DNA of 64,000 nucleotides from Escherichia phage vB_EcoM_011D4: sequence record MT478991.1; one strand, written 5' to 3'. Of the stretch, positions 60,789-64,000 are shown piece by piece. The notes beneath the pieces were generated by a model, which saw nothing but the letters and a program-made list of their open reading frames with translations, did not search any database and had not been told where the DNA came from. Position numbers and translations under genes: made by a program. Numbering within the stretch: position 1 is the stretch's first letter; each line of letters begins with the position of its first letter.

Positions 60789-61382
60789 TTACTTGTCAAA
60801 TACTTTATTAATTATATCTAACAACTTTGGTTTTCTATTTTCAAATTCTAACATTTCTTCGGGAGAAATATCAACTACTTCTGTTTTATGAAAGAAATCA
60901 GGATCTATTGCATCGGCAACAAAATTTCTAGCTAACGCAGCGGCCTTTTCGTAATCATAAAGACCTAGATACAAAAGTTTCCCTCTATCAACCTGAATAC
61001 ATGCTTTATATTTACCATCTCGTTTATAAAAACTTACTCCGATATACTCAGACGTCTTACCTTTTTGCTTTCCAACATTTCTTGAGTTTTGTTGGTCAGT
61101 CGCATCTCTCAAGTTTTCAATCCGATTATCGGTTATAACTCGGTTTACATGGTCAACACATTTTGGCATATATCCATGATGCATGAAGAAAATTATTCTA
61201 TGCTCTTTGTGCAATCGACCATCAAACTTAACTACTCTATATCCAATTCTTGGATTTACATAGCCCGCTCTAGATCCGACTTTATGCTTTCGGTTTGTCG
61301 ATATCTTGCGAATCAGCTTACCGTTATCATATTTAAAGAGTTCATGACAACGAGCATACAATTCAGGATCATATGTTTTCAC
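60789..61382 (-). CDS. HNH homing endonuclease with AP2-type DNA-binding domain
   Basis: 197 aa; HNH core HKEHRIIFFMHHG...VDHVNRVITDNRIENL; AP2-like YIGVSFYKRDGKYKA; inserted between 32 and 59. Confidence 0.75.
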   Translation of the reverse strand: MKTYDPELYARCHELFKYDNGKLIRKISTNRKHKVGSRAGYVNPRIGYRVVKFDGRLHKEHRIIFFMHHGYMPKCVDHVNRVITDNRIENLRDATDQQNSRNVGKQKGKTSEYIGVSFYKRDGKYKACIQVDRGKLLYLGLYDYEKAAALARNFVADAIDPDFFHKTEVVDISPEEMLEFENRKPKLLDIINKVFDK

Positions 61383-62046
61383 CTTTTAACCTCGATATTT
61401 CTTTACACTCTTTAACTACTTTAACAAATAATGTTCTTGCTTTTGCGGCGTCAATAACAAGTAGTTTCTTGTACGCCTTCATTTTAACACTATAAGTTTG
61501 CCAAATCAAGTCTTTGGCTACCTTGTCGTGTTCGTCGATTATATTTAGAAAGCTATCTAACAACATAAACGACTCAAACGATATAATCCGATTTTGCAGT
61601 AGTTTAAAGATACCGCTAGTTTCGGTTGCGGGATTGTATGTAATTAGCTCTTTAAGAGTAACCCCGCGTTTCTCTGAGAAGTATACAAGACTTTTAATGT
61701 CATCGTCAAATCGTGTTGCAGCATCAGTGATCTTACCGATATACTCCATGTAAAATCCGTATGCGTCAACATCAGTGATTTCACCTACCCATGCATCGGT
61801 ATTGGCTACCAGATTGCTTAGGAATAGGAAGTATAATTCTCTTAGATTGTACTTTTCCGCTAATTTCGCGAAATAATACTTATCTCTGCGTTTATTGAAT
61901 GCGGCATCAGACAACCGCATCCTCCAATTGTATTTTACGCAATCATAACGCCCGTTCATGTGAGCTTTCATCATGCAATATAACATATACACAGATTTAG
62001 CATTAATTCGCATATCTGGATCTGGAGGAAGACGGTTTCTGATCAT
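61369..62046 (-). CDS. 59: helicase loader gp59
   Basis: 225 aa; KSVYMLYCMMKAHMNGRYDCVKYNWRMRLSDAAFNKRRDKYYF closely matches T4 gp59. Confidence 0.93.
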   Translation of the reverse strand: MIRNRLPPDPDMRINAKSVYMLYCMMKAHMNGRYDCVKYNWRMRLSDAAFNKRRDKYYFAKLAEKYNLRELYFLFLSNLVANTDAWVGEITDVDAYGFYMEYIGKITDAATRFDDDIKSLVYFSEKRGVTLKELITYNPATETSGIFKLLQNRIISFESFMLLDSFLNIIDEHDKVAKDLIWQTYSVKMKAYKKLLVIDAAKARTLFVKVVKECKEISRLKGENI

Positions 62047-62055
62047 ACATACCCC

Positions 62056-62325
62056 TTAAATATCGAGAGTGTTGGTCGGTTCGTCGATCACTCCCTTCCT
62101 GAGCGTTCTATTTACTATACATTCTTGTGTGATCTTGTCAATAATGGACACCGGAATATATTTCTGATAGTGACCATATTCGATAGAGTTTTCCTCTACA
62201 AACTGCGTTGTCGCTTCAAGATAAGTCAATCCCTCTTCAACAACCAGTTTTTCGATTGCAAGACCGTTTGCTGTTTTGTTCGCGGCTTTTACCGCATGTT
62301 CATTAAGCATTGAACACCCGATCAT
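62056..62325 (-). CDS. 33: late transcription co-activator gp33
   Basis: 89 aa; YLEATTQFVEENSI..KYIP matches T4 gp33; T4 order 59-33-dsbA. Confidence 0.8.
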   Translation of the reverse strand: MIGCSMLNEHAVKAANKTANGLAIEKLVVEEGLTYLEATTQFVEENSIEYGHYQKYIPVSIIDKITQECIVNRTLRKGVIDEPTNTLDI

Positions 62326-62578
62326 AGAGTTCTACTGCTTCGTCGCGTTCTGCTTCGAAGGTTTCGCGCTGTTGCTGGTGATACAGTTTAAACAGAATGC
62401 CCCACATTTTACCATCGACGCCTAATTCTTCTTTAGCACGCTGTTTGATCTCTTTGATCTTATCGCCGTATGCTTCTTGAATGGTTTTCTGATCGCTGGC
62501 TTCTTTAATCAGTTGTGCCAGGGTATTTCCGTGTACATTTTCATCGAATACTACTTTTTCTTTTTTCTGTTCAGTCAT
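62303..62578 (-). CDS. dsbA: double-stranded DNA-binding protein DsbA
   Basis: 91 aa; IKEASD, RAKEELGVDGKM, ELYDRVF match T4 DsbA. Confidence 0.85.
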   Translation of the reverse strand: MTEQKKEKVVFDENVHGNTLAQLIKEASDQKTIQEAYGDKIKEIKQRAKEELGVDGKMWGILFKLYHQQQRETFEAERDEAVELYDRVFNA

Positions 62579-62583
62579 AATAT

Positions 62584-63180
62584 TTAACCCTCTTTCGTCA
62601 TTAATTGAAAACCACGTTCAGCTTTTGAAATTTCGCTAGGACTTAAATCGTCACCAACATATTCTAGCATCATTTCTCGGATAATGTCAAGTGCTTTTTC
62701 ATCACCTGATTTTAACTCGAACTCAAGTTCATAGTGAGCATCTCCCATTACTTCGCCGACTTTGCAATAATAGAAAGTGTCTTTGCACATTTCCACTATA
62801 GCACCCTCAAGGTCAATTGTCAATGACTTGCGGTATGTCATTACTTGCAATAAAGGAACGATAAGGTCGGAGTTTACGCCTAGACTATCAACATAATGAT
62901 AGAAATCATCCATTGTTGAAAAAGTAATTTCTTCTCGGTTGAAGAGTCCAGATTCACTATCACCTATTTTGACCATGATCAATGATCTATTAACGTCAAG
63001 TCGAGCATAAATTCCTTTTCGACGCAGTGCATGATCTTCGGTATCATAATAAAATTCGTGTTTTAGAGTGTTAGCACGATCTACTAGATTGTACCCGTCA
63101 TACATTGCTACCCACAAATCACAGATTGTTTCGACGCCAATTTGTGAGTGTGCATAGTATTTTAATTCAAGTTCTTTCAT
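62584..63180 (-). CDS. CYTH-domain protein (triphosphate tunnel metalloenzyme-like)
   Basis: 198 aa; N-terminal ELELKY (ExExK), HEFYYDTEDHALRRKGIYARLD, C-terminal YELEFELK acidic strands typical of CYTH. Confidence 0.6.
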   Translation of the reverse strand: MKELELKYYAHSQIGVETICDLWVAMYDGYNLVDRANTLKHEFYYDTEDHALRRKGIYARLDVNRSLIMVKIGDSESGLFNREEITFSTMDDFYHYVDSLGVNSDLIVPLLQVMTYRKSLTIDLEGAIVEMCKDTFYYCKVGEVMGDAHYELEFELKSGDEKALDIIREMMLEYVGDDLSPSEISKAERGFQLMTKEG

Positions 63181-63190
63181 ATGTCAACCC

Positions 63191-64000
63191 TTAGAACTCA
63201 CCAATTTTCTGCAACATTTTAACTAACGCATTTGTTACAAAATAGTTATAAATTTTACCGCGTGGTGCTGGTTTAGATTTTTCCCATGCTAACAAAATTT
63301 CATACTCAATGTTATCAGGAATAAATTCAAAATCAATAAGTTCGCGGTTTTCGTCAAAGCGTCGTGCTTCTTCCTCTGTCATCAAAGACTTTGGATCTTC
63401 GGCATCGAAAATTTGCTCTAACCATTTGGTTGCAATTGGTTTAGCTCGTTCACCTTCCAGTCGTGAGATAATGAAATCACTACGGCACTTGATAGAAGCT
63501 ACACCGTCTTTTGCGTCGCCCTTAACACATTTTACCATAAGGTCTTTGTAAGGGCTACCATATTTGCATTTCTTCCATGCTTTCTGTACTGGCGCCCACT
63601 GTTTCACGTTTTTGTATTTGTGCAACTGTGTGTAGTCACCATCACCGGAGTTGATCAGCACCTGGCGACCTTCTACAGAAAACTTTTTAGTTAACACAGC
63701 GATTATATCATCTGCTTCAACTTTGTCAACCTTAATAACGTGATAAGGCATGTTCTCTTTAAACTCTTCGGTGATCTTATTGATCGCAGCAAAGATCATC
63801 TCCCAATCACGCGGATCTGCGTCTCGTTTTTCCTTACGGTTGCGTTTATAGTAAGATGCGATATCACGTCGCCAGTAACCTTTGCTTGAATCAAAGGCAA
63901 GTACCGTAATTGGGTATTGCTCTTTGAATTTTGTCATATTATAACGCATGGTGTCAAGGATAAGATGACGGATCATGCCTTCATTAATAGGATCTTCCGG
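63191..64000 (-). CDS. rnh: RNase H / 5'-3' exonuclease (FEN), 5' end outside window
   Basis: MIRHLIL...GYWRRD...EADDIIAVL...INSGDGDYTQLHKY match T4 RNase H; frame stays open to the window edge. Confidence 0.9.
   Translation of the reverse strand, partial: PEDPINEGMIRHLILDTMRYNMTKFKEQYPITVLAFDSSKGYWRRDIASYYKRNRKEKRDADPRDWEMIFAAINKITEEFKENMPYHVIKVDKVEADDIIAVLTKKFSVEGRQVLINSGDGDYTQLHKYKNVKQWAPVQKAWKKCKYGSPYKDLMVKCVKGDAKDGVASIKCRSDFIISRLEGERAKPIATKWLEQIFDAEDPKSLMTEEEARRFDENRELIDFEFIPDNIEYEILLAWEKSKPAPRGKIYNYFVTNALVKMLQKIGEF

Follow-up and report, generated by a model that had tools for sequence, protein, structure and literature searches.

The 64,000-nt stretch of Escherichia phage vB_EcoM_011D4 (sequence record MT478991.1), referred to below as the window, was analyzed for a minus-strand gene that lies between rnh and dsbA and encodes a protein of the CYTH / triphosphate tunnel metalloenzyme (TTM) superfamily. 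The source is an RB49-like coliphage of the genus Krischvirus, and the ~2-kb stretch around the gene is 96–99% identical to FL15, JSE, RB49, and many others among the matches listed. The locus contains the following genes (window coordinates):

62584..63180, minus strand: CYTH/TTM gene, ATG start, 198 amino acids (aa), identical to RB49p245 (NP_891816.1).
63191..64000, minus strand: rnh (RNase H / 5'-3' exonuclease), upstream, truncated where the window stops, named from the RB49 annotation.
62303..62578, minus strand: dsbA, downstream (Pfam Phage_DsbA, 5.4e-22).

The rnh product matched Pfam RNaseH_C (1.3e-37) and 5_3_exonuc_N. The spacers are 10 nt from the rnh stop to the CYTH ATG and 5 nt from the CYTH stop to the dsbA ATG, and past the CYTH gene the order is dsbA, gene 33, gene 59, an HNH endonuclease gene, and gene 32. 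An earlier note on this DNA, made from the letters alone, had placed a 198-aa open reading frame (ORF) between dsbA and rnh and had stated that these two genes are adjacent in T4; the ORF was recovered exactly, and the T4 locus agreed. In T4 and T2, rnh directly adjoins dsbA with nothing between. The same adjacency was found in Jiaodavirus, Tulanevirus, and Pseudotevenvirus phages, and in a Lazarusvirus phage just a 76-aa ORF lies between the two genes. The CYTH gene has therefore been added in one lineage, at an rnh/dsbA junction that is very stable elsewhere.

The protein belongs to the CYTH/TTM superfamily. It scored 27.7 bits (E 2.9e-6) on the Pfam CYTH profile (PF01928), above the gathering score of 23.2, and matched PHROG 14893 ("unknown function") from end to end (2.3e-132). 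When a profile of the phage clade was compared by HHalign with 24 standalone cellular CYTH proteins, the probability was 99.9 (E 3.6e-33). The AlphaFold2 model, made from 17 family members, had a mean predicted local distance difference test score (pLDDT) of 91.6, a predicted template modelling score (pTM) of 0.84, and exactly eight long beta-strands with flanking helices; the predicted fold is an eight-stranded antiparallel beta-barrel tunnel. The top structural matches of the model were triphosphate tunnel enzymes. In Foldseek, the Escherichia coli protein YgiF was matched with E 5.8e-13 and a template modelling (TM) score of 0.77, the cyclases with about 0.46, and RNA triphosphatases with 0.4–0.5. 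Neither a match to the mRNA_triPase profile of Cet1-like RNA triphosphatases (Pfam PF02940) nor close structural similarity to these enzymes was found. NCBIfam and PADLOC searches with the protein gave zero matches, which places it outside curated bacterial equivalogs and known defence-system components. The ratio of nonsynonymous to synonymous substitution rates (dN/dS) was 0.22–0.30 against three other alleles; a spurious ORF was ruled out by these values and by synteny that is kept down to 32% identity.

The earlier note had based its CYTH assignment on three motifs, all of which are present in the translation: ELELKY (residues 3–8), a YYDTEDHALRRKGIYARL strand (44–61), and YELEFELK (150–157). 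It had also suggested a profile search, a fold prediction with inspection of the tunnel lining, and a survey of T4-like genomes. The two outcomes that it said would refute it, the lack of a significant CYTH profile match and a fold without the beta-barrel tunnel, did not occur: the Pfam match and the HHalign result are significant, the confident model is eight-stranded, and the acidic ExExK and ExE motifs together with the basic tunnel residues are conserved.

Residues were compared in a MAFFT L-INS-i alignment of 156 sequences (10 from the phage clade and 146 distant CYTH proteins), and the roles of the YgiF residues were taken from Martinez et al. 2015 (PMC4641920). The following elements were located:

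63160..63174, minus strand: ExExK motif E3-L-E5-L-K7; E3 and E5 are predicted to hold the metal of site 2, and K7 to bind phosphate.
63061..63063, minus strand: K40, a predicted tunnel-facing Lys, only in the phage clade.
62995..63009, minus strand: Y58-A-R60-L-D62 strand, the clade version of small-x-R-x-R; R60 is the putative catalytic Arg.
62710..62730, minus strand: beta-8 acidic strand E151-L-E153-F-E155-L-K157; E153 is the predicted metal-1 and E155 the predicted metal-2 ligand.
62611..62628, minus strand: S185-K-A-E-R-G190 in the C-terminal helix; the YgiF counterpart is SKAARG.

The ExExK residues are invariant in 17/17 family members and kept in 141–142 of the 146 distant proteins, and their assigned roles follow YgiF Glu-4/Glu-6 (PMC4641920). 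On beta-8, E153 and E155 align to YgiF Glu-160 (metal 1) and Glu-162 (metal 2), where 145–146 of the 146 relatives have Glu. K186 is kept in 146/146 relatives and R189 in 129/146; the model has a helix at residues 186–194, and the C-terminal helix with S185–G190 is what we take to be the plug helix. The catalytic Arg column holds R60 in the phage protein (R in 144/146 relatives), the second Arg column holds D62 (R in 142/146), and the column of Y58 holds Ala, Ser, or Gly in relatives and Trp in thiamine triphosphatase (ThTPase). E153, R60, K71, R82, and R117 occupy columns that are ≥97% conserved, and the residue set of a two-metal hydrolase is complete (E3, E5, K7, R60, K71, R82, E84, R117, E130, D134, E151, E153, E155, K186). 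In the model, the catalytic hairpin consists of strands 57–62 and 67–76 joined by a 4-residue loop and is 2 residues shorter than that of YgiF. The pairwise phmmer alignment to YgiF had put Tyr58 in place of the catalytic Arg, as in cyclases; this was overturned by MAFFT, by HHalign, and by the hairpin register of the AlphaFold2 model. No element of the protein varies more than the hairpin loop (residues 63–66; entropy 2.18), in which one metagenomic allele (P0033) has a 7-aa insertion.

Three motifs separate class IV cyclases from other CYTH proteins (Vogt et al. 2021, PMC8233210). By the criterion of that study, the HFxxxxExExK motif is absent from the phage protein, in which only M1-K2 stand before E3 and there is no room for it. 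The swap of the first Arg for a small neutral residue is absent, R60 being kept, and so is ExA on beta-8, where E153-F-E155 gives ExE. The making of a cyclic nucleotide, one of the options raised in the earlier note, is thus disfavoured. The "adenylate cyclase" label, found in three phage records (PHB13, AV108, KMB43), is probably wrong, because all three sequence signatures of class IV cyclases fail.

The predicted tunnel of the phage clade differs from that of its relatives around the catalytic residues. Column 40 holds K in 10/10 phage-clade sequences and K or R in 0/146 distant relatives, and D or N at column 62 is confined to the phage clade among the 156 aligned sequences. Tunnel-facing positions were assigned by strand alternation, with the catalytic residues as anchors. 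Their count of basic residues is unchanged (8.4 in the phage clade vs 8.7 ± 1.5), and the alignment suggests that positive charge was probably moved from strand 3 to strand 2 (K40 for position 62) and not lost. Aromatic residues and His at these positions number 8.1 in the phage clade vs 3.9 ± 1.2 (maximum 7). The changed columns are those of Y58, F136 (Gly in 111/146), Y138 (Ile/Val), and H149 (Ile/Leu). A pocket that combines Y-x-R-x-D, K40, and the extra aromatics is not known from any characterised CYTH enzyme.

The distribution of the gene was determined by tblastn against 50,697 phage records, which detected it in 58, all Krischvirus. For comparison, dsbA was found in 1,403 records, and 58 match the dsbA of this phage at ≥95%, the same number as the CYTH carriers. 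An exhaustive hidden Markov model (HMM) search of 1.84 billion representatives gave only ~5 close relatives; the matches beyond these were generic ~200-aa CYTH proteins and ~510-aa proteins, and the ~510-aa one that was scanned (P0049) is a CYTH-CHAD protein. The IMG/VR scan yielded only 3 loci, all Krischvirus-like, and other phage CYTH proteins in BFVD were structurally distant (TM 0.3–0.5). Three divergent relatives, P0043, P0044, and P0045, are 45%, 41%, and 32% identical, respectively, to the phage protein. Each of their genes directly precedes dsbA and gene 33, and that of P0043 in addition lies downstream of rnh; since relatives down to 32% identity sit at this position, the slot beside dsbA is an old one for the CYTH gene. 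Recent capture of host ygiF was ruled out, with identity at only 23%. A shortened form of 130 aa is present in protein databases (P0035; BFVD A0A482GBZ4). The closest cellular relative, P0046, is encoded on a metagenomic contig with archaeal-type neighbours (L012, 4797–6606), 4 nt downstream of a PRK-family kinase gene, a pairing that recalls plant TTM1/2, in which a kinase is fused to a TTM; an RNA ligase gene adjoins this locus on the opposite strand. In P0050 (462 aa), a CYTH-like N-terminus is fused to an AAA_28 domain.

Comparison of Krischvirus genomes divided the gene into two segments:

62737..63153, minus strand: variable core, codons 10–148, exchanged as deep allelic cassettes.
62584..62736, minus strand: conserved 3' segment, codons 149–198 and stop, 93–100% DNA identity even in Skers.

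Against Skers, DNA identity is 45–57% across 63160–62745 and 97–100% in both flanks and over the gene's last ~150 bp. The synonymous divergence (dS) of codons 10–148 is 0.42–0.43 (Phi1, Brandy) or saturated (Skers), vs 0.07–0.24 in codons 149–198 and 0.08–0.19 in neighbouring genes. There are at least five allele classes, whose cores are only 33–44% identical to each other (differing by 56–67%) and whose C-termini, with the exception of P0043, are 88–100% identical at the protein level. Variation is concentrated in outward-facing strand positions, helices, and loops; entropy per strand is 0–1.03 at inward-facing and 0.3–1.55 at outward-facing positions and is lower inward in every strand. These sequence patterns point to a strongly constrained active site and a diversifying surface, with alleles swapped by recombination via the conserved ends. 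A second small mosaic segment is found in rnh (~63281–63340, minus strand), a 60-bp hypervariable patch in the part encoding the RNase H C-terminus that is 62–72% identical to Skers, Phi1, and RB49 and 95% to Brandy, with 97–100% identity on both sides.

Possible signals for expression were located as follows:

63702..63729, minus strand: candidate early promoter TTGACA-N16-TATAAT with upstream TG, 12/12 match, inside rnh.
62690..62661, minus strand: sigma70-like site within the CYTH 3' segment, from the promoter scan.
Near 62588–62592, minus strand: putative dsbA Shine-Dalgarno sequence GAGGG, within the conserved CYTH 3' segment.

On the coding strand of 61300–64000, 15 sigma70-like sites were found vs 7.5 ± 2.3 expected. 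Six have a perfect TTGACA (63957, 63729, 63187, 62823, 62690, 62141), two of them inside the CYTH ORF (62823 and 62690) and one straddling its start (63187). The site at 63729..63702, ~550 bp upstream of the CYTH start, is a candidate promoter for CYTH-dsbA-33-59. The site is kept in all Krischvirus loci and recurs in the divergent locus L006 with its relative position unchanged; it has the same pattern as the "early RB49 promoter" annotated in GenBank before gene 32, and its GTTGAC agrees with the RB49 early consensus of Nolan et al. 2006. The late-promoter motif TATAAATA was searched for, and none was found anywhere near the CYTH gene. Early co-expression of the CYTH gene with replication genes is likely, judged from these motifs. 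All spacers in the rnh-CYTH-dsbA-33-59 block are ≤10 nt, and dsbA and gene 33 overlap by 23 nt (window 62303–62325), as they do in T4 and T2; such tight packing fits translational coupling.

Farther downstream, the space between genes 59 and 32 holds a 197-aa HNH_3 + AP2 homing-endonuclease-like ORF (window 60789–61382, minus strand), which shares 14 nt with the end of gene 59. This phage and Skers have the ORF, RB49, Phi1, and Brandy lack it, and DNA identity drops sharply at ~61420–61360. The 59/32 slot of T4 holds another homing endonuclease, SegG (GIY-YIG).

The gene and its CYTH assignment were already known. The protein is 100% identical to RB49p245, whose GenBank record (NP_891816.1) notes "similar to P45267, P30871, HI1598, ygiF", and Nolan et al. 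2006 (Virol J 3:30) listed "RB49ORF244c, CYTH domain, 0.0026" in their Pfam table for novel ORFs. RB49ORF244c and PHROG 14893 represent the same protein and the full-length family, with no sequence difference, and these sources give no function, subfamily assignment, or allele analysis. Two GenBank records (Makalu phages) carry the label "inorganic triphosphatase", and a jumbo-phage review mentions only that CYTH triphosphatases are scattered among phages. Added here are the placement within a subfamily, a corrected reading of the cyclase label, the pocket peculiar to the clade, and the mosaic of alleles.

By analogy with YgiF, the protein is quite probably an active hydrolase. The fuller reading that we prefer, and hold tentatively, is that of an active, early, two-metal triphosphohydrolase with a remodelled pocket, whose substrate would carry an organic group (nucleoside-type or thiamine-type). 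The protein would be a single-domain, active YgiF-type TTM without CHAD, made early and probably on transcripts shared with rnh, dsbA, 33, and 59. A complex of Mg2+ or Mn2+ with the triphosphate would bind in the barrel, as in YgiF, and would be held by E153 (metal 1) and by K7, R60, K71, R82, and R117. A second metal on E3, E5, and E155 would activate water for attack on the terminal phosphate, R60 would assist the leaving group (on the YgiF model), and the products would be orthophosphate and a diphosphate product. An organic triphosphate is favoured over bare inorganic triphosphate (PPPi) because the pocket appears remodelled (D62, K40, Y58, F136/Y138/H149), with about twice the aromatics; we infer this preference from the more aromatic pocket and do not present it as a result. 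The fold, the family, the retention of all catalytic residues, and the lack of cyclase signatures are shown by the analysis, from which catalysis, timing, and substrate are inferred.

Several points weigh against this reading. YgiF is specific for PPPi, acts slowly on thiamine triphosphate (ThTP), and shows no hydrolysis of adenosine, guanosine, or inosine triphosphate (ATP, GTP, ITP), pyrophosphate (PPi), or polyphosphate (polyP) (PMC3440374), which favours a plain inorganic triphosphatase (PPPase). The tunnel-facing positions come from strand alternation, and P0044 and P0045, the most divergent two members, have Val or Ile at position 58, so that aromatic stacking there is not universal. The candidate promoter at 63729..63702 overlaps conserved RNase H codons (V-D-K...E-A-D-D-I-I), a stretch that we take to be part of the RNase H nuclease active-site region; the conservation of the site is confounded because the same DNA encodes this stretch, and the RB49 GenBank annotation does not mark it as a promoter. 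In 1/58 records (MK327935.1, 146593–147185, 593 bp, phage G2494), the CYTH ORF is in two pieces annotated as two hypothetical proteins. This is a probable frameshift, and it may mean that the gene is dispensable in the laboratory or may be a sequencing error. No functional study turned up in a literature search on phage CYTH proteins, the "adenylate cyclase" of Krischvirus, and CYTH as an anti-defence factor.

The strongest competitor, although on balance unlikely, is a YgiF-like specific inorganic tri(poly)phosphatase minus CHAD that would remove PPPi or short polyphosphate while the phage infects. In structure and in sequence, YgiF is the best match by a wide margin, the nearest cellular matches include CYTH-CHAD proteins, neither the catalytic Arg nor any part of the two-metal site has been lost, AtTTM3 can do without the second Arg for PPPase activity, and the two Makalu records already say inorganic triphosphatase. 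Such an enzyme would not need the clade-only Arg-to-Asp change at 62, K40, and doubled tunnel aromatics, however, and there would be little physiological rationale for it, as bacterial cells are not known to contain PPPi and the PPPase activity of YgiF in E. coli extracts is insignificant beside that of pyrophosphatase (PMC3440374). The position of the gene 10 nt past the rnh stop, within the replication cluster, is the sole support from this locus for an RNA 5'-triphosphatase that would take the gamma-phosphate off 5'-triphosphorylated RNA, either on Okazaki primers (helping RNase H) or on transcripts (5'-end-dependent decay). TTM-fold RNA triphosphatases of large DNA viruses do exist and appear among the structural matches, but the match to Cet1-type enzymes is weak, and we regard this role as improbable. 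Least probable of all is that the protein, as a CyaB-like adenylate or nucleotidyl cyclase of class IV, makes cyclic AMP or another cyclic nucleotide. Its superfamily is that of these cyclases, it is so labelled in PHB13, AV108, and KMB43, and its structural matches include proteins deposited as putative adenylate cyclases; against this reading stands the failure of all three signatures.

Other explanations turn on the host. The protein might act in host takeover or counter-defence, hydrolysing some signalling or toxic nucleotide that bears a triphosphate, the alleles reflecting an arms race with a host sensor or inhibitor; we consider this rather unlikely. Candidate targets would be thiamine or adenosine-thiamine triphosphate of stressed E. 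coli, ITP/dITP-type (dITP, deoxyinosine triphosphate) immune messengers, and (p)ppGpp-like alarmones. E. coli produces ThTP as well as AThTP (adenosine-thiamine triphosphate) under stress, and dITP-type triphosphate-bearing immune messengers have been reported in the literature. The Kongming preprint mentions neither CYTH nor RB49; a counter-signalling role is conceivable, and nothing in this analysis ties the CYTH gene to it. A non-catalytic protein that binds a phosphorylated ligand as a sponge, or makes protein-protein contacts, with the tunnel residues kept only for binding, finds support in the rapidly diversifying surface and deep alleles, which resemble those of proteins engaged with host factors, and phages are known to use sponges against immune nucleotides (Kongming preprint). 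For binding, neither the two metal sites nor the catalytic Arg would be required; all are strictly conserved down to 32% identity, and this makes a binder very improbable in our view. RB49 lacks nudE and the bifunctional NUDIX protein of other T4-like phages (Nolan et al. 2006). The CYTH enzyme might take over nucleotide housecleaning in RB49 as a non-orthologous replacement.

As first described, the finding repeats a 20-year-old annotation and leaves the picture of T4-like phages unaltered. The "adenylate cyclase" labels in several phage genomes, probably mistaken, should become CYTH/TTM triphosphohydrolase. Compact and restricted to phages, the family branches off from YgiF-type enzymes and has a pocket of its own kind, in which a new specificity could be defined; if the counter-defence explanation were true, the Y-x-R-x-D / K40 aromatic pocket would represent a new substrate class in the CYTH family. 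A conserved active site combined with deep, recombining surface alleles in near-identical genomes is typical of host-interacting genes, and the gene is therefore a reasonable, not compelling, candidate for knockout and defence-library screens.

Among known systems, the closest by sequence and structure is E. coli YgiF (PDB 5a60/5a61), a CYTH-CHAD inorganic triphosphatase that is 23% identical to the phage protein. The phage protein ends at residue 198 after the C-terminal helix, with no CHAD match and no linker, whereas YgiF continues into CHAD. The second Arg of YgiF is Asp62 in the phage protein, Lys40 is new, the predicted tunnel is more aromatic, and the hairpin is shorter by the 2 residues given above. 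The phage protein is thus without two features of the YgiF cluster (sequence similarity network (SSN) cluster 1, Vogt 2021), CHAD and the second Arg. YgiF is encoded by a host gene, and the phage CYTH protein by a gene in a replication cluster. The 25-kDa ThTPase (mouse/human, PDB 5a64, 3bhd; CYTH cluster 8) has W/Y-x-R-x-R where the phage protein has Y-x-R-x-D; the phage protein has the aromatic Y58 (V/I in P0044/P0045) and the first Arg, and its second Arg position is Asp. The phage protein resembles ThTPase only in part, and its structural similarity to ThTPase is clearly below that to YgiF. With the class IV cyclases (Aeromonas CyaB, Yersinia YpAC-IV, PDB 2fjt/3n10), it has in common the CYTH superfamily, a similar size, a single domain, and ExExK.
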